Source: an uncultured Verrucomicrobiota bacterium
GTDB lineage: Bacteria > Verrucomicrobiota > Verrucomicrobiia > Limisphaerales > DTLC01
Reading direction: 5' to 3'
DNA length: 64,000 nucleotides
Assembly: GCA_964555645.1 (NCBI GenBank)
Contig: CAZKTA010000004.1
Location: forward strand, 46,742 to 110,741
Shown here: positions 695 to 57,131 of the stretch, piece after piece
Numbering within the stretch: position 1 is the stretch's first letter
How the letters are laid out: each line of letters starts with the position of its first letter
Translations under genes and position numbers: made by a program
Notes under the pieces: model-generated
Told to the model about the DNA's origin: nothing
Seen by the model: the letters and a program-made list of their open reading frames with translations, nothing else
The model's database searches: none

Positions 695-776
695 GTCGGC
701 AATGGAGTTTGCCGACCCCGCGTGTATGCAATCGGGGTAAACCGCCTGAACCAGGTTCAGTGCTGATAACTCCTGC
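695..776 (+). ncRNA. Fluoride riboswitch (crcB motif)
   Basis: GGCAATGGAGTTTGCC...AAACCGC-CTGAAC/GTTCAG-TGCTGATAACTCCTGC matches the fluoride aptamer pattern. P1 is gtcggca/tgccgac, P2 is ctgaac/gttcag, and the pseudoknot is GGAGTT (704-709) with AACTCC (768-773). An extra hairpin accccg/cggggt occupies 715-738. Confidence 0.9.
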
Positions 777-782
777 CAAATA

Positions 783-807
783 ACCGCCATTGGCGGGTGT
801 TTTGTTT
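783..807 (+). terminator. Putative expression-platform hairpin (terminator or start-site sequestering) of the fluoride riboswitch
   Basis: Hairpin ccgcc-att-ggcgg followed by gtgttttgttt, immediately before the ATG at 808. Confidence 0.5.
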
Positions 808-2019
808 ATGCACGAGAACATCTGGTTCACAGCCGCGTTTTGGATGGGGTTGGCATTCGTTGCCAGCCTGGTTTCCATTCGGATTGGTATTTCGGTCGCG
901 CTTGTCGAGATTTTGGTCGGAATTGTGGTTGGCAATGTGCACACAGCCGACCATGTGCCGCTGCTTCACACGACCGAATGGACAAATTTTCTCGCCATGC
1001 TCGGCAGCGGCGTACTCACGTTTCTGGCCGGCACGGAAATTGACCCGAAATCGTTCCGGTCAAACCTGCGCGCCAGCTTGAGCATGGGCTTTCTGTCGTT
1101 TCTGTTGCCATTTTTGGGCGTTTGGTTTTTTGCGCAGTTTGTCCTCGGCTGGCCCCTGCGCCAGGCGTGGATTGCCGGTATCGCGCTTTCGACCACATCG
1201 GTTGCAGTTGTTTACGCGGTGATGATTGAAAGCCGGTTGAACGAAACGCCTCTGGGCAAATTGTTGTTGGCAGCGTGTTTCATCACAGACCTCGGCACCG
1301 TACTAGCGTTGGGAATTCTTTTTGCAGACTTCAACGTCTGGATGTTTGTGTTCGTCGCGGCCACAGCACTCGTGCTGTTCGCAGCACCGAAGTTGACCGA
1401 GCGACTCATCCGCCGTCTGGGCGCAACGCGCGTGAGCGAGCCTGAAGTGAAATTTCTTTTCCTTGTGCTGTTTTTCCTGGGCGGGCTGGCGTCATCCGCA
1501 AAGAGCGAAGCTGTGTTGCCAGCGTATTTGTTGGGCCTTGCCCTGGCTGGGGTGTTCCTGCGCGACAAAACCCTGGTGCTTCGTATGCGCTCGATTGCCT
1601 TTGCAATTTTCACGCCATTTTTCTTCATCAAGGCCGGACTGTATGTGTCGCTGCCGGCGCTGCTGAGTGCAACAGGCAGCGTGGCAGTGTTGCTTGCGCT
1701 GAAACTCATCACCAAATGCATCGGTGTATGGCCACTGTCGCGCGCGTTCCGCATGCGCACCCGCGAGGCCAACTACACCACGTTGCTCATGTCAACCGGC
1801 TTAACCTTCGGCACCATCTCGGCGCTGTTCGGCCTGCAAAACAAAATCATTAACCAGCAGCAATACTCGATTCTTGTCACCGTAGTAATTTTAAGTGCGA
1901 TTGTACCGACCATGATTGCGCAGAGGTTTTTCCAGCCTACGATTGAAAGCATGGATGAATGGGCAAAAATGTATGGTCAAGAACGATCCGGCACACACGG
2001 TAAATCGTTAGACGGTTAA
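808..2019 (+). CDS. Cation:proton antiporter, CPA2/NapA-Kef-like family
   Basis: About 13 hydrophobic segments, with motifs LTFLAGTEID, ALSTTSVAVV, AACFITD, FTPFFFIKAG and GLTFGTI. Likely start is ATG 808 (MHENIW); the ORF-track start at 790 lies in the riboswitch platform. Confidence 0.9.
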   Translation: MHENIWFTAAFWMGLAFVASLVSIRIGISVALVEILVGIVVGNVHTADHVPLLHTTEWTNFLAMLGSGVLTFLAGTEIDPKSFRSNLRASLSMGFLSFLLPFLGVWFFAQFVLGWPLRQAWIAGIALSTTSVAVVYAVMIESRLNETPLGKLLLAACFITDLGTVLALGILFADFNVWMFVFVAATALVLFAAPKLTERLIRRLGATRVSEPEVKFLFLVLFFLGGLASSAKSEAVLPAYLLGLALAGVFLRDKTLVLRMRSIAFAIFTPFFFIKAGLYVSLPALLSATGSVAVLLALKLITKCIGVWPLSRAFRMRTREANYTTLLMSTGLTFGTISALFGLQNKIINQQQYSILVTVVILSAIVPTMIAQRFFQPTIESMDEWAKMYGQERSGTHGKSLDG

Positions 2020-2084
2020 ACCGTCAAACCGGTGAACCAGTTCAACAATCCGATGGTCCCACGATTCAACGAAGCTACAAACCC

Positions 2085-2510
2085 ATGTTCACGAAAATAC
2101 TAGTTGGTTACGACGGTTCAAAAGGCGGGCAGGCAGCCTTGCGCCGCGCTGCAATGCTTGCCAAACAATACAATGCACAAATTACCGCGCTTTGGGTGCG
2201 TCCGCCACTGCCACGGCACGCGGATTTGCCGGGTGAACCCGAAGCCGAGGCCGAAGCTGCTGAGGAATTCTTCCAGCAACGGCAAAGGGAAGTGGCTGAA
2301 GTATCCATGCAACACGGCATAACCATCCAATGCGAAACACGACGCGGTCACCCGGCCAAGACAATTGTCAACTTCGCCAAAGAAGGCGGGTACGACCTGA
2401 TCGTGGTCGGCCACAGCGACCATTCGGAGTTGTGGGGCAGGTTGCTTGGCGACACCGCCGACCGTATCAGCGACCATGCCCACTGCAGTGTGCTGATTGT
2501 AAAAAGTTGA
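2085..2510 (+). CDS. Universal stress protein (UspA family)
   Basis: MFTKILVGYDGS...GHPAKTIV...DLIVVGHS...LLGDTADRISDHAHCSVLIVK is the USP fold signature. Confidence 0.95.
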   Translation: MFTKILVGYDGSKGGQAALRRAAMLAKQYNAQITALWVRPPLPRHADLPGEPEAEAEAAEEFFQQRQREVAEVSMQHGITIQCETRRGHPAKTIVNFAKEGGYDLIVVGHSDHSELWGRLLGDTADRISDHAHCSVLIVKS

Positions 2511-2920: not shown

Positions 2921-3084
2921 TTAAGGCCGAGAACTGTCAAGTTGAACCCAATGGTCCAGCTCTGCTACAGCACTGATTCGTTTTGCTTTCCCAATCTGCT
3001 GATTGAAAGGTCAGGCGCAGCAAACTTGACACGAACATGGTGTGCCAGTACAAAACTATCGCAAAGGATAAAACTCAGCGAGCA

Positions 3085-4683
3085 ATGAACAAGACAGGCT
3101 TTCCCGGCAGTGTGCGAGCAGCACTCGTTTGCGTTGCAGCTACGGTTTCGGCCATTGGACTTGCACAGCAACAAGGCCATTTCAGCTACACTGTGGTTGA
3201 TGAACAAGCCATCATAACCGGATTCGATAAATCATACATAGGTGAAGTTAACATCCCCACAACACTTGGTGGTTACCCGGTGGTTGGTATTGGCGAGTCA
3301 GCTTTTGCATATTGCTCTGGGCTCAGTAAGGTCACAATCCCAAACGGTGTGATATGGATCGGCCCCGCTGGATTCTATTGCTGCAACACACTGACTAACG
3401 TTGTCCTGCCGGATAGCCTCACATCAATTGGGCAAGAAGCATTTGCGTATTGTGGTCTGCGGCATCTAACGATACCAAATGGCGTAACGAACATCGGGCC
3501 TCGTGCATTTTGGGCCTGCGGCAACCTTGTTGATGTTGCCTTTGGCAGTGGACTGAGCGCAATTGGTGACGCTGCGTTTGCCTTCTGCTCTGGTTTGCGG
3601 GAGGTTGTTATTCCTGACAACGTGATTGAGGTCGGTGCGTCGGCATTTTTGTGTTGCACCAGTTTAACCAATGCAACTGTAGGCAAAGGTGTTGCATCAC
3701 TCGGCAAAGGTGCTTTCTACGGTTGTTCGAGTTTGCTAGCAATTAACGTTGACCCGGCGAACTCCGCCTACAGCAGTCTCGACGGTGTCCTGTTCAACAA
3801 AGCAAAAACTTTGCTCATTCGATACCCAACCGCGCGCGCTGGGACTTATGCTGTTCCAGTAGGTGTGATTGAAATCGGGCCGGGTGCTTTTTTGAGCTGT
3901 GCAAACTTGACCGGTATCAGTTTCCCAAGTGGCCTATTGAACATTGGCGATAGCGCTTTCAGCGAATGCAACGCGCTGACTGATGTAACAATCCCACATA
4001 CCGTCACCGCATTAGGCGAATCGGCTTTTGAATATTGCTTTGGTCTGACTAATGTCACCATTGGAAACGGCCTTACCAATATCGGGCCGCGCGCGTTCAT
4101 TTCGTGCATTGAATTACGATCCGTCACGCTCGGCGCTAATGTGAGAACAATCGGTTGGTCAGCATTTAACGGTTGCACCAAACTCGGTCATATCGTGCTT
4201 GGCCACAGCCTCACAACTCTGGGGGATTACGCATTTTTATGGTGTACAAACCTAGTCCGGATTGTTTTGCCTAGAACACTGACCAGCGTCGGCACCAATG
4301 CATTCGCAGGATGCTCAAGCTTGGAACGTGTGTATTTCACTGGCAATGCCCCAACGCTTGTTGGCGACGATGTCTTCATGTTTTCGGACAATGTTACAGT
4401 GTATTACTTGCCCAACACGTTAGGTTGGGGGCCGACCTTTGCCGACCGGCCAGCACGATTGTGGAATCCAGTTTTTACCAGGATTAACCTCACCAATGGC
4501 CAGTTGCGTTTGACAGTGACAGGTACAGCAGGCATACCGATCGCACTTGAACTGGGCACGAATATCGTCGTGGGGCATTGGGAACACCGGCTCACCACAA
4601 ACCTTGTTGGCGGCCAGATTGACCTGGCCACGGCAGTTTTCCCAAATGCACAAGCTGGTTTTTGCCGGCTCGTCGGCCCATAA
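3085..4683 (+). CDS. Secreted BspA-type leucine-rich repeat (LRR_5) protein with a C-terminal beta domain
   Basis: Signal peptide (VRAALVCVAATVSAIGLA), about 14 repeats of consensus IPxxVTxIGxxAFxxCxxL, then VYFTGNAP...VYYLPNTLGW and a C-terminal domain ending GFCRLVGP. Start ATG 3085 preferred to 3037. Confidence 0.9.
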   Translation: MNKTGFPGSVRAALVCVAATVSAIGLAQQQGHFSYTVVDEQAIITGFDKSYIGEVNIPTTLGGYPVVGIGESAFAYCSGLSKVTIPNGVIWIGPAGFYCCNTLTNVVLPDSLTSIGQEAFAYCGLRHLTIPNGVTNIGPRAFWACGNLVDVAFGSGLSAIGDAAFAFCSGLREVVIPDNVIEVGASAFLCCTSLTNATVGKGVASLGKGAFYGCSSLLAINVDPANSAYSSLDGVLFNKAKTLLIRYPTARAGTYAVPVGVIEIGPGAFLSCANLTGISFPSGLLNIGDSAFSECNALTDVTIPHTVTALGESAFEYCFGLTNVTIGNGLTNIGPRAFISCIELRSVTLGANVRTIGWSAFNGCTKLGHIVLGHSLTTLGDYAFLWCTNLVRIVLPRTLTSVGTNAFAGCSSLERVYFTGNAPTLVGDDVFMFSDNVTVYYLPNTLGWGPTFADRPARLWNPVFTRINLTNGQLRLTVTGTAGIPIALELGTNIVVGHWEHRLTTNLVGGQIDLATAVFPNAQAGFCRLVGP

Positions 4684-5346: not shown

Positions 5347-7593
5347 ATGCGCTCTGACACAATCAAAAAAGGTATCGAACGCGCCCCGCACCGCGCGTTG
5401 CTCCGTGCAACCGGCGCAATCGAGTCGGAGGCTGATTTCGATAAACCGTTTGTTGCAATTTGCTGTTCGCACACGGATTGCATCCCCGGACACGTCCACT
5501 TGGATGAAGTTGCAAAACTGCTGAAGAAATTTGTCCGGCAGTTCGGCGGCGTGCCATTTGTATTTCATACAATTGGTATTGACGACGGCATCGCAATGGG
5601 CCACTCGGGCATGAAATACTCGCTGCCATCGCGCGAGTTAATTGCCGATTGCGTCGAAAGCATGGTTAAAGCCCACTGTTTCGACGGCATGATTTGCGTG
5701 CCGAACTGCGACAAGATCATCCCCGGCATGCTCATGGCGGCCATGCGCGTGAACATACCGACCGTGTTTGTCAGTGGCGGGCCGATGGCAGCCGGTGTGT
5801 TGCAACGCGCACCCAAGCCGGGTGTGCCCGAGCCGCTTAGACCGGCAGGGGCGGCTTCGGACCTGATCTCGGTTTTTCAGGGTATAGGCAAGTTGCAAGC
5901 GGGCTCGATTAGCCCTGATGAACTTGCTAGGCTCGAACAGACATCTTGCCCGACCTGCGGATCGTGTTCCGGCATGTTCACGGCGAACTCGATGAACTGT
6001 CTGTGCGAGGCGCTTGGCATGGCATTGCCCGGCAATGGCACAATCTTGGCCACGTCAATTGAACGTGAGGCACTGTATGAATGGGCCGCGCGCCAGATAA
6101 TGCAATTGATCAACTTGGACCTCAAACCGCGTGACATCGCAACGCGCGATGCGTTCGACAATGCATTCACGCTGGACATGGCAATGGGCGGCTCGACAAA
6201 CACGATCCTGCACGGTTTGGCTATTGCAAGAGAAGCTGGCATCGAATACGACATTGGTAGGATCGACGCGTTATCCCGGCGCGTGCCATGTCTGTGCAAG
6301 GTGTCACCGTCTTCGTCGTATCATATACAGGATGTGCATCGTGCTGGTGGGATTCACACTATCCTTGGTGAACTTGCTCGGCTCGGTGTGATCAACACCG
6401 AATGCAAAACTGTTACAGGCAAGACAATCGGCCAAAACATAGCCGAGTGGGATGTGCGGGCCGGTACATGCACCGCATGGGCAAAAGTAGCCCAGGTGTC
6501 TGGGGCGTGTGTCCCACTTTCGCGTGACGGGGAAAACCTGAAAATGGCACTTAAACCTGTGTGGCTTGCCCCCGGCGACGAACGCGCGCTAACGTTGTGG
6601 CGGTTGGCTTGTGCAATAAACAGGTTGGCTTGGTCGGTTGCACAGGTGCTTTTCACCGATGGCGCAACAATCACACTCGACACCGGCGAAGCGCGCTCGG
6701 GCGCATCAAACCTGACCGACCTGTTGAAACAGATGGTCACAAATGTTTCCGGCTCTGTGCGTGCCGAGCTGCGCATTTTGCGCGGTGCACCTGCAGTGGT
6801 GTTCTGGCAATACAATGCCGAGGGCGGTGCGCCGAGTTTGTTTGCCACGCTTACACAGGTGAAGGTCCGGAACTGGCGGGTCGGGCGCGGCGCGCTCTCG
6901 ATGCGGCCGCGTTTGCCGGCAACAGATGAAACCGCAGGCGTCATCCCGTATGATGCTGCAGATGGTTTTGACCCGTTTGATTGTATTCGGACGTCTCAAA
7001 CGGCTTATTCGCCGGATGGCGGGCTAGCGATCTTATTCGGTCAGCTAGCACCTCAGGGTGCAGTGGTCAAAACAGCAGGCATAAGCGAGCAGTTTAAGGC
7101 GCTGTGCGGGCCGGCGTTTGTGTTTGAGGGACCGTGCGTCATCTTCGAAAGCCAGGAAGATGCGTGTGCGGGTATTCTTGCCGGTAAAGTGAAGCCTGGT
7201 GACGTGGTCGTGATCCGATACGAAGGTCCGCGTGGCGGCCCTGGGATGCAGGAAATGCTCTCGCCTACAAGTTACATCGTCGGCATGGGTTTAGGCGACA
7301 AGGTGGCACTAATCACGGACGGCCGATTCAGCGGCGGCACAGCCGGCGCATGCATCGGGCATGTGTCACCCGAAGCTGCTGAGGGCGGGCCCATTTGCCT
7401 GCTTAAGGATGGTGACAGGGTCCGTATAGATTTTCCCAATCGGCGCATTGACATACTGGTGCCTGCTGAAGAACTGGAGATGCGCCGGGCAAGCTGGCAA
7501 CCGATCAGCCGGCCCGTGTCAAGCTGGCTGGCTCGGTACCGTCGGCTCGTGACAAACGCAAGCCAGGGCGCAATCCTCAAATTACCCGACTGA
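5347..7593 (+). CDS. ilvD: Dihydroxy-acid dehydratase with a large internal insertion
   Basis: [80 protein letters not shown] and GHVSPEAA. 748 aa versus the usual roughly 560-620 aa. Confidence 0.96.
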
Positions 7594-31924: not shown

Positions 31925-32014
31925 GGAGAGATGGCAGAGTGGTCTAATGCGCACGCCTGGAGAGCGTGAGTGGGCTAAAACCCACCGGGAGTTCGAATCT
32001 CCCTCTCTCCGCCA
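31925..32014 (+). tRNA. tRNA-Ser (anticodon GGA)
   Basis: Acceptor ggagaga/tctctcc plus GCCA, anticodon arm cacgc-ctGGAga-gcgtg, long variable arm, T-loop gttcgaatc. Confidence 0.96.
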
Positions 32015-33912: not shown

Positions 33913-36900
33913 ATGAGATTTCATTTAGTTGGCCGCGCAACTGCGCGATTGGGGGTAGGGAATTTGGTGCTCGCAGGGTTGATTCTCGGTGCTGGCTCAC
34001 TCAACGGTTCCTATCCGTTTTTTGACAACTTTGAGTCTGGTCTGGGCAACTGGAGCGCAGGTGGCACATGGGGCTTGACAACCGTGCGCTATGCATCGGC
34101 TACGCGCTCGGTTACGGATAGTCCGGGCGCCTTCTACACAAATAACACTGACGCGGCGTTGACCTTGGCTGGTTCGATCGGCTTGGTGGGCGCAACGCGG
34201 CCTGCGTTGAGTTTCTTCCACCAATACGCGTTGGAAACCGGCTACGATTTCGGGCGCGTTGAAGTCTCCACCAACGGCGGCGCAACCTGGCTGCCCACGC
34301 CGCTGGCTGCTTACACCGGCAACCTCGGCACGATGAGCCGCGAGCAACTGGACCTCTCGGCCTACACCGGGCAGGCGAACGTCCGCATCCGCTTCCGGCT
34401 CGTTACTGACAGCTCGGTGGTCATGGACGGCTGGTATGTGGACGACGTGCTTATTGCCCAAGCGCCCCCGCCGGTCACGCTCAGCGCCACGATGACCAAC
34501 CGCAATTCAGCGGCCCTCGCCTGGACCGCCTCTGCTGCACCGGATTTCGCCGCCTACCGACTTTACCGTGCGATGTCACCCGGCGTGGACTGGCGCACCG
34601 CCGGGGTTGTGGCCGAGGTTTCGCTCGCAAGCACGACCAACCTGACTGACATCACACTCAGCCCGAAAACGACCTACTACTATCGCTTGGCCGTGGTCAG
34701 CACCAATGGCCTGCTCACACTCGGCAACGAAATCGCCGTCACGACGCATCCGGGTATGGACTATCCGTTTGTGGACAACGGTGAGGGCGGGCCGAACACA
34801 TGGATCGCCGACGCGCCCTGGGCGTTGACCACCGAGCAGTCTGCCTCGCCCACGCGCGCCTGGAGCGATTCACCGGGCACGAACTACGCCAACGGCATTC
34901 CGTCGCAATCACTGACGCTGGCCGCGCCGTTGTTTCTTGCCGGCAACGCTGTGTCGCCGGTGCTCTCGTTCAACCATAAATACGACTTTGCCTCCGGCGA
35001 TTCGGCCAACGTGGAAATCTCGACCAACACCGGCGCAAGCTGGGTCACTCTCGCCAGCTTCACTGGCACGGCCACCAACACATGGCAGCGCGGGCGCATC
35101 AGTCTGGCCGCTTACACCAACGCCACGGTGCTCATCCGTTTCCGCATCACCACCGATCCCTCGGCCAACGCAGATGGCTGGTATCTGGACGACATTTCAG
35201 TGGCTGAGGCGCCCACGGTTGTCAACGCGCCCGTGCTCGATCAGGTCACCTCGCACTCGACCCGCGTCAGTTGGCCGGCCAACACCAACCAGTTCTTTTC
35301 CCATTACGCCATCTTCCGGTCCACCGCGCCGGGCGTCGGCATCAACTCGGCGCTTGTCGCCACCATCAGCAACCGCGCCACGACCAGCCTCGTGGACACC
35401 AACCTCGCGCTCGACACGGTCTATTACTACCGCGTTTATGCGGTGAACCCGTGGGGCACATTCTCCCCGGACAGCCCCACCGAGAGCAGCACGCGCACGC
35501 TCAATAACCCGCTGCCGTTTGGCGACGGCTTCGAAGACTCGTTGCAATCGTGGAATCTGACCGGCACGTGGGGACGCGCCACCAACCACGCCCGCAGCGG
35601 CGTCGCCTGCCTGAGCGATTCACCCGGATTCAATTACGGCAACAACTCCGATTCCTCCGCCCAAACCGCGGTGAACCTGGCGGGGAGCACCTGGCCGGTA
35701 TTGAAGTTCTGGGACAGGTTCCGGCTGGCGGACGGGGACTGGGCGCGGGTTGAGGTTTCGACCGATGGCAGTGGTTGGACGCCAGTGTATGGTGCTTGGG
35801 GAGTGCGGGAGAGCTGGCGCGAGCAGCAGATTGACCTCTCGCCGTGGAAGAACCAGAGCAACCTGCGCATCCGTTTCCGGCTGATCACCGACGGGAGCAC
35901 CACCGAGGACGGCTGGAGCATAGACGATGTGGTGGTGGCCGAGCAGGCGCCTGTGGCGGTGAGCCTGCCGTTTGTGGAGGGCTTTGAGTCGGGGCTGAGC
36001 AACTGGCTGGCGTCGAGCTGGGCTGTGGACACGAACAGTCCCTACGAAGGCAACTTAGCGGTGCGGGACGTGCCTGGGCGGATGAACCCGGACACAAGTT
36101 ATGCGCTGGTGTTGGGCGGGGAATTGAACCTGAACAACGCGGTGAATCCGCAGTTGGTGTTCTGGGTGCGTGGGCAGTTGTGGTATCGGTCGCGTTTCCG
36201 GGTGCAGTATTCGACCGATGGCGGGTTGAGCTGGCCGGAGTTGACGGGGCTGAACTATGACTGGAATGCGGGCTGGACGCGGATGCAGGTGAGCTTGCAA
36301 GGCCTGATCAACCAGACCGTGCGGCTGCGGTTTGTGACGTGGTGCGAGTGGGGCAGCGCACCGGCCCAAAGCCTCTGGCTAGACAAGGTCGTCATCGAGG
36401 AGATGCCGGCGGCGGTGACGCTGGCCGCGCCCGTGCCGGGGCTGCGCACGGTGAATCTGACCTGGACGCCATCGACGCTGGGCACGGCGTTCAAGCGTTA
36501 TGAGGTGCGGCGTTCGACTGGTCCGAATGTGACGTGGGACTCGACGTTGATCGGCAGCTTCACCAACGCGGCGGTGACGAATCTCACTGACACCGGCCTG
36601 AGCATCGGGGCAACTTACTATTACCGCGTCTTTACGGTGGACACCAACGATGTGTTCATTCCGTCCAACGAGCGTTCGACGACGACCGTGCCGGTGTTGT
36701 TGCCGCTGACGGATGCGTTTGACACGACGGCGCAGTGGGTGACGACGGGTAGTTGGGGTATTGCGCCCAGCGGGCGCACCGGCACCTGCCTGAGCGACTC
36801 GCCGACCGGGGATTACGCCAACAGCACCGACACGTATGCGATGACGGCGGTGAACCTGGCGGGGAGCACCTGGCCGGTATTGAAGTTCTGGGACAGGTTC

Positions 36901-39675
36901 CGGCTGGCGGACGGGGACTGGGCGCGGGTTGAGGTTTCGACCGATGGCAGTGGTTGGACGCCAGTGTATGGTGCTTGGGGAGTGCGGGAGAGCTGGCGCG
37001 AGCAGCAGATTGACCTCTCGCCGTGGAAGAACCAGAGCAACCTGCGCATCCGTTTCCGGCTGATCACCGACGGGAGCACCACCGAGGACGGCTGGAGCAT
37101 AGACGATGTGGTGGTGGCCGAGCAGGCGCCTGTGGCGGTGAGCCTGCCGTTTGTGGAGGGCTTTGAGTCGGGGCTGAGCAACTGGCTGGCGTCGAGCTGG
37201 GCTGTGGACACGAACAGTCCCTACGAAGGCAACTTAGCGGTGCGGGACGTGCCTGGGCGGATGAACCCGGACACAAGTTATGCGCTGGTGTTGGGCGGGG
37301 AATTGAACCTGAACAACGCGGTGAATCCGCAGTTGGTGTTCTGGGTGCGTGGGCAGTTGTGGTATCGGTCGCGTTTCCGGGTGCAGTATTCGACCGATGG
37401 CGGGTTGAGCTGGCCGGAGTTGACGGGGCTGAACTATGACTGGAATGCGGGCTGGACGCGGATGCAGGTGAGCTTGCAAGGCCTGATCAACCAGACCGTG
37501 CGGCTGCGGTTTGTGACGTGGTGCGAGTGGGGCAGCGCACCGGCCCAAAGCCTCTGGCTAGACAAGGTCGTCATCGAAAACTCGCCCCCGCCGGTCACCT
37601 TGGCCGCGCCCACCGATATCACGCCCAATTCGATGCGCCTGACCTGGACCGAAACGACGATCCCGAACTTCAAGGCGTATCGGGTCTATCGCTCGGAGTC
37701 GCCCGAACCGACCGAAAGCGCGACACTGGTCGCAGTCATCACCAACCGCGCCACCACTACATTCACCGACAGCGGGTTGATGGCGCGCCGGACCTATTAC
37801 TACCGCGTCTATCTCAACAACGAGAACGACACGAGCGTCGGCTCGAACCAGTCGTCCGCCATGACGACGGGTGTGGGACTGCCCTTCGCCGATGGCTTTG
37901 AAACCAACCAGTCCGGCTGGACGTTCACCGGCACGTGGTCGCGCGCGGCGGGCATCGGTCGCAACGGCTCGTGGGCTTTGCAGGATTCGGCGGGCGACTA
38001 TCCCAACAACGCCAGTCACTACGCGCAGTTCGCAGTGGATTTGCGCGGTCTCAACTGGCCGGTGCTGCGGTTCTGGGACCGGCACGCCTTCGCCGACAAC
38101 GACTGGGGTCGGCTCTTCGTCTCAGGCGATGGCGGCGCGAACTGGACCTGTGTGTATGGCGTCTCGGCCACGCGCACGGACTGGGCCGAACAGGCCATTG
38201 ACCTGTCGCCGTGGAAAAACTCCGGCCAGGTCTGGCTGCGTTTCCAGGTTAACAGCGACGGCGGCACGCAAAACGACGGATGGTATGTGGACGACGTGTC
38301 GCTGGCCGAGCACGTGCCTGCCGCCATGGTGTATCCGTTCCACGAGAACTTCGAGTCCGGCCTGGACAACTGGCTGCGCGCATCATGGACGTTGGACACC
38401 AACTTGCCCTATGCCGGGCAGGTTGCGGTGCGCGACACCGTGCCGCCGCGCATGCCGCCCGACGCGCAATTGGTGCTCGCGCTGGGCCGCCAGTTGAACC
38501 TGAGCAATGCCGTGAACCCGGCGCTGACCTTCTGGTTGCGCGGGCAGCTTTGGTATCGCAGCCGCTTCCGCGCGCAAGCCTCGACCGACGGCGGCCTCAA
38601 CTGGAGCGACCTGGTGGCTTTGAACAACGACTGGAACCAGAACTGGACGCGCATGCAGGTGCCGCTCACGACCTACACCAACCGCAGCATCCGCCTGCGC
38701 TTCATCGTGTGGAGCGAATGGGGCACCGCACCGGATCAGGATTTGTTCCTCGACAACATTGGCATCGGCGAACCCGCCCCCGGCGCGCCCACGCTGGCCG
38801 CGCCCGCAAACTTCACCATCGTCGGCGTTTCACGTCCGACACTGGTTGTGAGCAACGCCGTGGATTTCCAAGGCGACCCGCTGACGTATCGCTTCGAGGT
38901 CTATGCCGACCCGGCGCTCTCGCAGGTCGTCGCGCAAGTGCCGGCCATTGCGTCCGGCCCGCTCACAACCAGTTGGCAGGTGGACACCGACCTGCCCAAC
39001 AACACGCAATTTTGGTGGCGCAGCCGCGCCACCGACGGGACGAACACCGGCCCGTGGATGACCACGGCGACGTTCTACGTCAACGAAACCAACCGCCCGC
39101 CCGTCGCGCCGGTCATTGCTGGCCCGCCGCCGGGCTTGATGCTGACCAACCTCGACGTGCTGCTGCTCTGGTGGCCGTCGGCAGGTGATCCGGACGAAGG
39201 CGACCGCGTAGTGTCCTACAACATTCAGGTTGCGGACAATCCGGCGTTCGCGCTGCCGGTGATCAACGCCACGAATATTCCGGCCATCGAACTGCCGCCG
39301 GGCACAAACTGGGTGCTCAGCCTGCCGCTGAACAGCCTGCCCGGTGCGCAGAACTTCGTCTGGCGCACGCTCTATCACTGGCGTGTCAGCGCCCAAGACC
39401 AGCGCGGGCTTAGTTCGGCGTGGTCGGCGGCCTGGCCGTTGCAATACGGCCCGCCTGCGCCGCGCGCCGGCACCATCACTGCCATCCGACGTGAACCGGA
39501 TGGGAAGGTGACGTTGGAATGGACTGGCGCAGCCGGGTTCGTTTACGTCGAGTTCTCGCAGACATTGGACCCAGCGCAATGGTACACAGTGGCTGGGCCG
39601 TTGCATGGCACAAATTGGACATTTAGGCCCGTGCCAGGCATCCCAATTGGCTTTTACCGGCTCCGTGCTCAGTAA
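33913..39675 (+). CDS. Giant secreted modular protein: 8 jelly-roll (InhA/MAM/cleaved-adhesin-like) modules, about 6 FN3-like domains and a C-terminal domain
   Basis: Signal-peptide-like N-terminus; modules begin (Y/L)PF.(D/E).FE...W and end W..D(D/K)V; FN3 segments end TYYYR; terminus GFYRLRAQ. Confidence 0.85.
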   Translation: MRFHLVGRATARLGVGNLVLAGLILGAGSLNGSYPFFDNFESGLGNWSAGGTWGLTTVRYASATRSVTDSPGAFYTNNTDAALTLAGSIGLVGATRPALSFFHQYALETGYDFGRVEVSTNGGATWLPTPLAAYTGNLGTMSREQLDLSAYTGQANVRIRFRLVTDSSVVMDGWYVDDVLIAQAPPPVTLSATMTNRNSAALAWTASAAPDFAAYRLYRAMSPGVDWRTAGVVAEVSLASTTNLTDITLSPKTTYYYRLAVVSTNGLLTLGNEIAVTTHPGMDYPFVDNGEGGPNTWIADAPWALTTEQSASPTRAWSDSPGTNYANGIPSQSLTLAAPLFLAGNAVSPVLSFNHKYDFASGDSANVEISTNTGASWVTLASFTGTATNTWQRGRISLAAYTNATVLIRFRITTDPSANADGWYLDDISVAEAPTVVNAPVLDQVTSHSTRVSWPANTNQFFSHYAIFRSTAPGVGINSALVATISNRATTSLVDTNLALDTVYYYRVYAVNPWGTFSPDSPTESSTRTLNNPLPFGDGFEDSLQSWNLTGTWGRATNHARSGVACLSDSPGFNYGNNSDSSAQTAVNLAGSTWPVLKFWDRFRLADGDWARVEVSTDGSGWTPVYGAWGVRESWREQQIDLSPWKNQSNLRIRFRLITDGSTTEDGWSIDDVVVAEQAPVAVSLPFVEGFESGLSNWLASSWAVDTNSPYEGNLAVRDVPGRMNPDTSYALVLGGELNLNNAVNPQLVFWVRGQLWYRSRFRVQYSTDGGLSWPELTGLNYDWNAGWTRMQVSLQGLINQTVRLRFVTWCEWGSAPAQSLWLDKVVIEEMPAAVTLAAPVPGLRTVNLTWTPSTLGTAFKRYEVRRSTGPNVTWDSTLIGSFTNAAVTNLTDTGLSIGATYYYRVFTVDTNDVFIPSNERSTTTVPVLLPLTDAFDTTAQWVTTGSWGIAPSGRTGTCLSDSPTGDYANSTDTYAMTAVNLAGSTWPVLKFWDRFRLADGDWARVEVSTDGSGWTPVYGAWGVRESWREQQIDLSPWKNQSNLRIRFRLITDGSTTEDGWSIDDVVVAEQAPVAVSLPFVEGFESGLSNWLASSWAVDTNSPYEGNLAVRDVPGRMNPDTSYALVLGGELNLNNAVNPQLVFWVRGQLWYRSRFRVQYSTDGGLSWPELTGLNYDWNAGWTRMQVSLQGLINQTVRLRFVTWCEWGSAPAQSLWLDKVVIENSPPPVTLAAPTDITPNSMRLTWTETTIPNFKAYRVYRSESPEPTESATLVAVITNRATTTFTDSGLMARRTYYYRVYLNNENDTSVGSNQSSAMTTGVGLPFADGFETNQSGWTFTGTWSRAAGIGRNGSWALQDSAGDYPNNASHYAQFAVDLRGLNWPVLRFWDRHAFADNDWGRLFVSGDGGANWTCVYGVSATRTDWAEQAIDLSPWKNSGQVWLRFQVNSDGGTQNDGWYVDDVSLAEHVPAAMVYPFHENFESGLDNWLRASWTLDTNLPYAGQVAVRDTVPPRMPPDAQLVLALGRQLNLSNAVNPALTFWLRGQLWYRSRFRAQASTDGGLNWSDLVALNNDWNQNWTRMQVPLTTYTNRSIRLRFIVWSEWGTAPDQDLFLDNIGIGEPAPGAPTLAAPANFTIVGVSRPTLVVSNAVDFQGDPLTYRFEVYADPALSQVVAQVPAIASGPLTTSWQVDTDLPNNTQFWWRSRATDGTNTGPWMTTATFYVNETNRPPVAPVIAGPPPGLMLTNLDVLLLWWPSAGDPDEGDRVVSYNIQVADNPAFALPVINATNIPAIELPPGTNWVLSLPLNSLPGAQNFVWRTLYHWRVSAQDQRGLSSAWSAAWPLQYGPPAPRAGTITAIRREPDGKVTLEWTGAAGFVYVEFSQTLDPAQWYTVAGPLHGTNWTFRPVPGIPIGFYRLRAQ
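35668..37577 (+). repeat. Intragenic direct repeat, 2 x 731 bp (35668-36398 and 36847-37577)
   Basis: Offset 1179 bp. Alternate-frame ORFs in the two copies translate identically over the shared span, and the boundaries were read by eye. Confidence 0.92.
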
Positions 39676-40645
39676 TTTTCGGCGTCGGCTGTATTGGGTG
39701 CATACAGTTGAATTGTGTGGTGAGCGAATCAGTGCTCGAAAAGCAATCTGCGCTAATGCTTCGCCAGCGCCGTTTATACAAGCGGGAGTTTTTGTGACGA
39801 AGAATTGTTGGTGATTACACCGGTTTTCTGCCCGCGATGAAATCCCCGGTTTAGCACACGCATCCAATTAACCATGTTTGATGCGCCTCTGCGCACAATA
39901 AAGGGGGTTGCAGCACGTCGGTCGAATTCAACGGGTCCGTATTGGCCGAGTACTCGTGCTTATCCGTCATGCCGCGCGCGGGCTAATGTGGTTTGCAAAG
40001 CTAAACGCCGTGAGTGCATTGGGCTAGCTCAGTTCTCGCCCGTCTGCAGTGCCGTAGCGACCTGAGCTGGCCTCGGAGGCAATTTATGGTGTTTGAAACC
40101 ACAGCACGAGCATTGCTGTGGCTAAGCCAGCCGCAGTCGGCGCTCTACCAGGGATAAAATGAAATGGTTAGCGCTTGCTTACCCTTTGCCTGACCGAATC
40201 CGTCAACCAAAGAATACTTCGAACCACGTGTCTGGCGGCCTTTGCATGATCTTTGCGCCATAGCCACGTCAATGCCAAGAGGCGCAACAACAATAAAGGC
40301 AACTTGCAAACCGTAAAAACCGCTTATGCCAACCCCTTAGCGCAACCTAAACTCCCAGTTTACATTTGGTAGAGGTAAGCAGGATGAACAGGTGTGGGCG
40401 GCTTTTTAGGTCGGGCGCGGATAACAGCGTGCGCGAGGCGGCCCAGACCTGCATCGCACAGAAAAGAATCGTGAGCCAACGTCTCATACCGTTACCTGCA
40501 CCAGGGTCTATGAAACACCAAACTCCGCCAATTCAAATCCACTCTGGCAATCTTGTCTCGTCAACACAAGGCCAGCCGTCGGCGGCCGTCCACAGCATAA
40601 CAATCGAAATACTAGTGACATCCCGACGCTACCGGCTTTAAGAGG

Positions 40646-57056: not shown

Positions 57057-57131
57057 GGCGCGTTCGTCTATCGGTTAGGACACGGCCCTCTCAAGGCTGA
57101 AAGATGGGTTCGATTCCCATACGCGCCGCCA
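57057..57131 (+). tRNA. tRNA-Glu (anticodon CTC)
   Basis: Acceptor ggcgcgt/acgcgcc plus GCCA, anticodon arm cggcc-ctCTCaa-ggctg, T-loop gttcgattc. Confidence 0.95.

Follow-up and report, generated by a model that had tools for sequence, protein, structure and literature searches.

Fluoride riboswitches define the bacterial fluoride regulon, of which the exporters, Fluc (CrcB) and CLC(F), have been well studied. Na+/H+ antiporters are the next commonest riboswitch-associated class after these exporters, and have been linked to pH homeostasis (PMC11139923). Their association with the riboswitch has been described since 2012 (Baker 2012, in the account given of it by PMC11139923). In the riboswitch operon of E. 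cloacae FRM, fluoride induces uspA, a universal stress protein (USP) gene, 120-fold, and eno 176-fold (PMC5533749). Here we describe a locus from a stretch of 64,000 nt of an uncultured Verrucomicrobiota bacterium (contig CAZKTA010000004.1), referred to as the window, in which a fluoride riboswitch directly precedes a CPA2-type antiporter gene and a USP gene. The association of riboswitch and antiporter being already known, the locus is a new and tidy member of the group. We consider it probable that it is a fluoride-inducible operon, whose antiporter is an electroneutral cation/H+ exchanger resetting pH beside a fluoride exporter, with the USP as its regulatory partner. The elements of the operon are listed below, with the evidence used for each.

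659-687, + strand: possible weak sigma-70-like promoter (TTGCCA, 17 nt, CATTGT); read from the sequence
689-782, + strand: fluoride riboswitch aptamer (crcB motif, RF01734); Rfam and custom covariance model
698-701 with 710-713, + strand: P1 helix GGCA/UGCC, with the conserved loop AUGGAGUU; Rfam alignment
704-708, + strand: 5' strand of the pseudoknot, GGAGU (G704-U708); Rfam alignment
715-738, + strand: extra hairpin ACCCCG/CGGGGU (6 bp, 12-nt loop) between P1 and the linker; insertion relative to Rfam
744-763, + strand: second aptamer helix, extended (G744-C763, C745-G762, U761 bulged, C746-A750 with U756-G760)
769-773, + strand: 3' strand of the pseudoknot, ACUCC, pairing with G704-U708; Rfam consensus positions
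772-807, + strand: intrinsic terminator, stem C772-A779 with U790-G797; terminator scan and RNA folds
808-2019, + strand: CPA2-type cation/proton antiporter, 403 aa, ATG start; Pfam PF00999 (Na_H_Exchanger)
2085-2510, + strand: universal stress protein, 141 aa; Pfam PF00582 (Usp)

Two sets of related loci were used for comparison. The genomic set contains the best 80 of at least 597 relatives (one genome per species), 53-77% identical to the window antiporter; the metagenomic set contains 80 more distant loci, 78 of which could be evaluated for the riboswitch. Locus searches were based on alignments A2 and A5, since A1 and A4 were too diverse.

Both strands of the window were scanned with Rfam, and the fluoride aptamer was the sole riboswitch match on either of them. 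The match to RF01734 (Fluoride) spans model positions 1-64 of 64, with 38.6 bits (gathering score 34) and an E-value of 3.8e-7. An earlier note on this DNA, made from its letters alone, had claimed a complete fluoride aptamer ahead of a two-gene unit and had named the Rfam covariance model as a check; a full-length match above the gathering score is what the claim called for. The modest score is due to an insertion of 23 nt after P1 (714-738). Under a custom covariance model, built from an alignment (A3) of 22 related aptamers, the window aptamer scores 65.9 bits. Across these 22 aptamers the columns of P1 and its loop are invariant or nearly so, and columns C84, C85 and T86, in the 3' strand of the pseudoknot, are invariant in A3. 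All the invariant columns (14 of 14) are present in the window aptamer, where the linker AAACCGCC and the 3' strand GAUAACUCCU can be read. A hairpin is inserted at the same place in 20 of the 22 related aptamers, with stems of 4-9 bp and differing sequence; judging from this covariation among relatives, the insertion is a real, lineage-typical hairpin and not noise. The bulged and extended second helix recurs in loci L005, L006, L007 and L010, and aptamers of the same variant type as that of the window precede crcB in L007, L013 and L017.

The terminator follows the aptamer closely, its 5' arm having C772 and C773 in common with the pseudoknot strand. There is also a shorter alternative stem (784-796). 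The U-rich tail (798-807, UGUUUUGUUU) comes after the terminator stem, and the ATG at 808 follows. Since the arm of the terminator overlaps the pseudoknot strand, the arrangement corresponds to the standard transcriptional ON logic of fluoride switches, as had been predicted for the antiporter-USP unit. When fluoride is scarce, the nascent RNA would fold the terminator (772-797 plus the U-run), and transcription would end just before the ATG. When cytoplasmic F- rises, the aptamer would bind it, locking the pseudoknot G704-U708/A769-C773; part of the terminator 5' arm would thereby be withheld, and the polymerase would read into the antiporter and USP genes. The same platform, with an ACUCCU arm, a U-run and an ATG directly after it, is found in L005, L015, L016, L018, L019, L024, L030, L035, L042 and L061. 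It is clearer in L015, L016, L018 and L019, which read ACUCCUUC...GGAAGGAGU UUUUUUU AUG and have a Shine-Dalgarno sequence, AAGGAG, inside the 3' arm of the terminator. With low confidence, transcription is proposed to start a few bases before P1, from the putative promoter at 659-687; a promoter scan gave nothing at these positions, the sequence being under the scan threshold. A TTG at 790 was considered as the start of the antiporter gene and discarded: it lies inside the terminator, the start chosen in public gene calls is ATG-808, and no record exists of a product that begins at TTG-790.

The antiporter matches PF00999 over residues 15-371 (E-value 5e-43, 147.8 bits, cut-off 26.2). The closest solved structures by sequence are NapA (E-value 1.6e-20, family profile) and KefC (E-value 1.1e-13, PDB hidden Markov model, HMM). 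The protein was modelled by AlphaFold2 with a predicted local distance difference test score (pLDDT) of 93.1 and a predicted template modelling score (pTM) of 0.92. Helices broken at residues 128-131 (STTS) and 328-331 (MSTG) make up, in the model, the crossover of the NhaA fold. The top Foldseek matches are all CPA exchangers, namely NapA (TM-score 0.76), then PaNhaP, KefC and NHA2, with a probability of 1.00.

The eight-position CPA motif of Masrati et al. 2018 (PMC6181914) was mapped onto the antiporter through HMM alignments. Positions 1-4 are T129-T130-S131-V132, position 5 is A156, positions 6-7 are T160-D161 and position 8 is K303. D161, the essential ion-binding Asp, aligns to NapA D157 and KefC D156, and K303, a Lys of transmembrane helix 10, to NapA K305 and KefC K307. 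The uncharged T160, at position 6, aligns to NapA D156 and KefC Q155, while T333 occupies the site of NapA E333 and KefC E337, a Glu which neutralises half-helix dipoles in those two proteins (PMC11150392). Position 5 carries no Glu (A156 lies four residues before position 6) and position 8 is a Lys, as in CPA2 according to Masrati 2018; on these residues the antiporter is classed with the CPA2 branch. It does not belong to the electrogenic NapA/NhaA type, having T160-D161 at the motif. Within the genomic set the Asp of position 7 is kept in 80 of 80 relatives and the Lys of position 8 in 79 of 79 scored, positions 6-7 reading TD in 62 relatives, ND in 16 and CD in 2. CPA2 proteins in which position 6 does not supply a second acidic residue have been argued to be electroneutral (Masrati et al., PMC6181914), and the same argument has been made for the QD motif in the KefC structure paper (PMC11150392). 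With an uncharged position 6, and hence no DD motif, no Asp-Lys salt bridge would form, so that electroneutral exchange is expected.

Relatives of the antiporter number in the thousands, with 75-80% identity across Verrucomicrobiota. The 80 genomic relatives come from at least eight phyla (Verrucomicrobiota, Acidobacteriota, Chloroflexota, Nitrospirota, Actinomycetota, Proteobacteria, Bacillota, Gemmatimonadota and others), and these antiporters form a discrete subfamily that crosses phylum boundaries. A search for the aptamer with a hand-written regular expression proved too strict (11 of 80 loci), and Rfam and the custom covariance model were used instead. Of the first 19 loci, 17 have an aptamer that reaches the gathering score in Rfam. 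With the custom model, the antiporter is preceded by an aptamer at a distance of 250 nt or less in 53 of the 80 genomic loci, and 14 more have one on the same strand within 2.5 kb upstream; 10 have none, and 3 are truncated. A riboswitch is then found upstream in 67 of 77 evaluable loci, or in about 65 (about 85%) if L038 and L044 are subtracted; the percentages are approximate, as the weak adjacent matches of the custom model in these two loci were unconfirmed by Rfam, and as the model missed aptamers detected by Rfam in L134 and L137. When 19 weaker or negative loci were re-checked with Rfam, most calls were upheld, L038 and L044 remaining unconfirmed; the lack of a fluoride aptamer in four Actinomycetota loci was among the calls upheld. 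In the metagenomic set, at least 52 of the 78 loci (at least 67%) have the riboswitch, both samples having been picked by similarity to a riboswitch-linked query, with a possible enrichment for the riboswitch. Canonical aptamers of up to 62 bits precede orthologous antiporters in at least eight phyla. By comparison, only about 15% of Flucs and about 30% of CLC(F)s are riboswitch-regulated (PMC11139923). The frequency of about 85% among the 77 loci agrees with the placing of the unit in the fluoride regulon by the earlier note.

One sub-branch of the family, the TN-type (L085, L094, L120, L129 and L133, from metagenomes), has Asn for the Asp of transmembrane helix 5 (TM5) and Glu for Thr129 in the unwound TM4 (LSETS...TN). 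A suspicion that relatives without the TM5 Asp have no carboxylate at the site was dropped, since the TN-type loci have Glu129; the carboxylate looks relocated, not lost, and its retention is as expected for a cation/H+ site. Aptamers at the Rfam level occur in two of the four evaluable TN-type loci (L129, 62 bits; L133, 43 bits). The more distant P0165, P0200, P0234 and P0239 have neither the TM5 Asp nor Glu129.

A gap of 65 nt separates the antiporter gene from the second gene of the operon, and the terminator scan predicted nothing in it (2019-2085). The product of the second gene matches PF00582 over residues 1-140 (E-value 6.7e-33, 114.6 bits, cut-off 24). Neighbours were counted by tblastn searches of the 80 genomic loci, each taken with flanks of 4 kb; these counts replaced those of an open reading frame (ORF) caller, whose clusters c8 and c4 were shadow ORFs lying antisense to the USP and antiporter genes and were set aside. 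Within 4 kb, 44 of the 80 antiporters have a USP homologue (on the same strand in 43), and, taking both sets together, the next gene downstream of the antiporter, in the same orientation, is a USP gene at 47 of the 144 evaluable loci. In P0133 (47% identity) the antiporter and the USP are naturally fused. The proximity in 44 of 80 loci and the fusion back a functional tie between the two proteins, as had been supposed.

No PF02537 (CrcB) or Voltage_CLC match was obtained among the window ORFs scanned with Pfam, the antiporter included; these scans covered all ORFs but a few that overlap or shadow others, such as 38830-39867 (- strand). In agreement with the earlier note, which had seen no crcB or CLC gene here, no CrcB, CLC or DUF190 gene was found in the 64 kb by Pfam scans and tblastn with 10 CrcB and 21 DUF190 proteins. 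A lone CrcB tblastn match of 26 aa was an artefact: it lies on the aptamer, the query ORF having run over a riboswitch. Among the genomic loci, crcB is found by tblastn within 4 kb of the antiporter in 20 of 80, on the same strand in 19. In L007, L025, L027 and L036 a single riboswitch precedes an operon of crcB, DUF190, antiporter and USP. The presence of crcB alongside the antiporter implies that the latter accompanies Fluc and does not replace it.

The sequence of events that we consider probable is then as follows. HF would leak into the cell and dissociate. The antiporter, with D161 as the one carboxylate of its site, would swap one monovalent cation (Na+ or K+) per H+, electroneutrally, and would in this way reset the cytoplasmic pH and the pH gradient. 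A Fluc would remove F-, leaving the proton and cation side to the antiporter working alongside it. The USP, through whatever it may sense, would act as regulatory partner of the antiporter. The antiporter is regarded as an accessory, not as the exporter, because the cation/H+ chemistry is kept and because it is repeatedly encoded next to the Fluc gene. A role in pH homeostasis, the published consensus (PMC11139923, citing Baker 2012), is also the reading that best fits the data. The earlier note had proposed that the antiporter may export fluoride or counter HF-driven acidification; the second part of this proposal is retained, and the first is not supported. Several points weigh against the sequence of events as given. 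No biochemical study of this antiporter class was found in literature searches aimed at it. The best NCBIfam match, to the CPA2 model TIGR00932, has 102.6 bits and is below the cut-off of 238.3, which marks the protein as a divergent member. The site has fewer acidic residues than that of NapA (D156 to T, E333 to T), and its chemistry may differ from that of characterised exchangers. Signals of selectivity conflict, V132 being NapA-like while the polar position 6 and the Lys are Kef/CHX-like. The net direction of H+ movement, which would leave the cytoplasm alkalinised or acidified, cannot be derived from sequence. Finally, USPs of the ATP-binding subclass (MJ0577 type) have the motif G-2x-G-9x-G-[ST], and the window USP departs from this canonical form, its nucleotide motif being degenerate (G-HS-D-HSELWGRLL-G-D-T). 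The same degenerate motif is found by alignment in its nearest relatives, while more distant operon USPs (L050, L061, L036) are canonical.

An exporter of a third kind, moving fluoride by F-/H+, F-/cation or HF transport and taking here the place of Fluc or CLC(F), would be in keeping with the lack of any crcB or CLC gene found in the 64 kb, and with a riboswitch linkage (about 85% and at least 67%) tighter than that of Flucs (about 15%) or CLC(F)s (about 30%; PMC11139923). At two of the three positions where NapA has a core carboxylate, the window antiporter moreover has Thr (T160, T333), and the positive half-helix dipoles of the crossover have no neutralising Glu. Such an exporter is nevertheless very unlikely. 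The window amounts to about 1-2% of a verrucomicrobial genome, so that the absence of crcB from it says little; a same-strand crcB within 4 kb in 19 of 80 loci, some of them single-riboswitch operons, would be redundant for an exporter. The Asp and Lys of cation/H+ exchange, D161 and K303 in the window, are fully conserved, with a Glu appearing nearby where the Asp is lost, and all close structural matches, NapA, PaNhaP and KefC at their head, are cation/H+ exchangers. A new exporter in place of Fluc or CLC(F), put forward earlier for this unit, is not upheld by these data, and we give as little credence to the wider claim that the TTSV/[TN]D/K clade is a third exporter family, transporting fluoride or HF with or without the help of the USP. 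It is even harder to believe that the aptamer is a chance match, or a variant for another ligand, and the antiporter a housekeeping Na+/H+ exchanger unrelated to fluoride. The Rfam score is indeed only 4.6 bits over the gathering score, and the 23-nt insertion is present; against this, the E-value in the window is 3.8e-7, every nucleotide invariant in the 22 relatives is there, the insertion is a covarying hairpin common to these, aptamers of the same variant precede crcB in L007, L013 and L017, and canonical ones, of up to 62 bits, stand before orthologous antiporters in at least eight phyla.

Protective acidification of the Kef kind, in which K+ would leave and H+ enter, lowering the pH and collapsing the gradient that traps fluoride as a weak acid, is also unlikely; it would resemble the action of KefC in defence against electrophiles. 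A polar position 6 with Lys at position 8 is common to CPA2s of the Kef/CHX type, and relatives are annotated as KefB-type in several sources. When KefC is activated in defence, the cytoplasm becomes more acidic by 1-2 pH units (PMC11150392), and fluoride-acclimated yeast tolerate a lower homeostatic pH (PMC11139923). Many relatives come from metagenome-assembled genomes of peat and soil, where a presumably low external pH would favour the entry of HF. The window antiporter, however, has a Val in place of the KefC Thr127, which coordinates K+ in TM5a-b, as in the Na+-selective NapA, and in KefC the change T127V abolished the binding of K+ (PMC11150392). The motif is TD and not QD, an RCK/KTN gating domain is lacking, and the KefB and KefC NCBIfam scores are far below their cut-offs (KefC, 42 against 752), which places the protein outside the Kef type.

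Other features of the window, and the related loci to which the following paragraphs refer, are listed below.

2-537, - strand: enolase gene, N-terminal part, back to back with the operon; Pfam Enolase_N/C
3037-4683, + strand: BspA-type leucine-rich-repeat protein, starting 527 nt past the USP; LRR_5, E-value 7e-96
31925-32011, + strand: tRNA gene with a long variable arm; Rfam scan
33913-39675, + strand: ORF of 1920 aa with InhA-like MAM, Reelin subrepeat B and fibronectin type III domain matches
57057-57128, + strand: tRNA gene; Rfam scan
L008 7081-8403, L011 5764-8579, L042 5738-7651, L050 5548-7441: dynamin-family GTPase genes
L008, L011, L015, L017, L019, L025, L027, L032, L042, L050, L061: fluoride islands

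Enolase is the classical fluoride target, and its gene often belongs to operons of this kind elsewhere. The enolase gene of the window is divergent from the operon and so is not under its riboswitch; its product is 61-67% identical (tblastn) to enolases of the antiporter loci L023, L050, L056 and L078. The 1920-aa ORF has no exact copy in the gene index, and PADLOC defence models gave no match.

Within the 4-kb flanks of the 80 genomic loci, DUF190 genes were counted in 26, dynamin-family GTPases in 15, MFS genes in 13, enolase in 12 and MutS-domain genes in 4. At orthologous loci the antiporter is combined with crcB, DUF190, enolase, USP, MFS and MutS-like genes, preceded by aptamers at the Rfam level. 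DUF190 (PF02641, uncharacterised; 3629-3988 in L007) is the most regular neighbour after the USP, usually in the same operon, between crcB and the antiporter; no study of a role in fluoride defence was found in the literature searched. The dynamin-family GTPase (Dynamin_N) is recurrent in the fluoride regulon, either directly after the antiporter (as in L015, L016, L019, L022, L030 and L035) or behind a riboswitch of its own at the Rfam level, and no paper linking fluoride, riboswitch and dynamin was found in the literature searched. In many related loci, two or three fluoride riboswitches occur within 9 kb, each before a different gene; the genes behind the riboswitches of such islands are those for the antiporter, the dynamin-like GTPase, MFS, enolase and an ABC ATPase. 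The flanks of two further loci contain other RNA elements, a c-di-GMP-I riboswitch in L052 (886-971, - strand) and two Acido-Lenti-1 RNA matches in L069 (5915-5959, - strand; 6072-6116, + strand).

The window locus is a clean minimal example of its kind, with riboswitch, antiporter and USP only. To this the comparative data add a subfamily that extends across phyla, has a predicted electroneutral site with a single carboxylate, travels with crcB and has a USP partner that is sometimes fused to it. The direction in which these antiporters move protons would settle how bacteria manage pH under fluoride stress, a matter of relevance to oral microbiology and to the engineering of microbes that degrade organofluorine compounds. 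Motif and co-occurrence data give concrete predictions, for which the locus is a reasonable experimental entry point.

Compared with RF01734 switches of the ON type, such as that of Bacillus cereus crcB, the window riboswitch is alike in P1 with its AUGGAGUU loop, in the AAACCGCC linker, in the second helix, in the GAUxACUCCU 3' strand of the pseudoknot and in a terminator 5' arm competing with the pseudoknot. It differs in the extra 6-bp hairpin (715-738) and the longer, bulged second helix, both common to many verrucomicrobial relatives, and in the start codon directly after the U-tract.

The electrogenic CPA2 Na+/H+ antiporter NapA of T. thermophilus (PDB 4BWZ, 5BZ2) is the best match of the window antiporter in both sequence and structure. 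The T-S-V of its unwound TM4 aligns to T130-S131-V132, whereas its D156 and E333 correspond to T160 and T333, and the DD motif is missing from the window protein. The glutathione-gated, electroneutral K+/H+ exchangers KefC and KefB of E. coli have in common with it the CPA2 fold, an uncharged polar position 6, Lys at position 8 and, as predicted here, a role in protection from stress. They differ from it in QD for TD, in the K+-binding Thr127 where it has V132, and in Glu337 (KefC) where it has Thr. The window antiporter has no C-terminal RCK/KTN domain (PF00999 only) and no KefF/G partner, a USP being encoded downstream instead. Fluc (CrcB) and CLC(F) are under the same riboswitch, and belong to the same regulon, as the antiporter class, but have no relationship to the window protein in sequence or fold. 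The operon of E. cloacae FRM includes crcB, ppaC, eno and gpmA and is without an antiporter, whereas that of the window is made of antiporter and USP only. With respect to the antiporter and USP genes already known from the fluoride regulon, the window has the same gene classes behind the same riboswitch.

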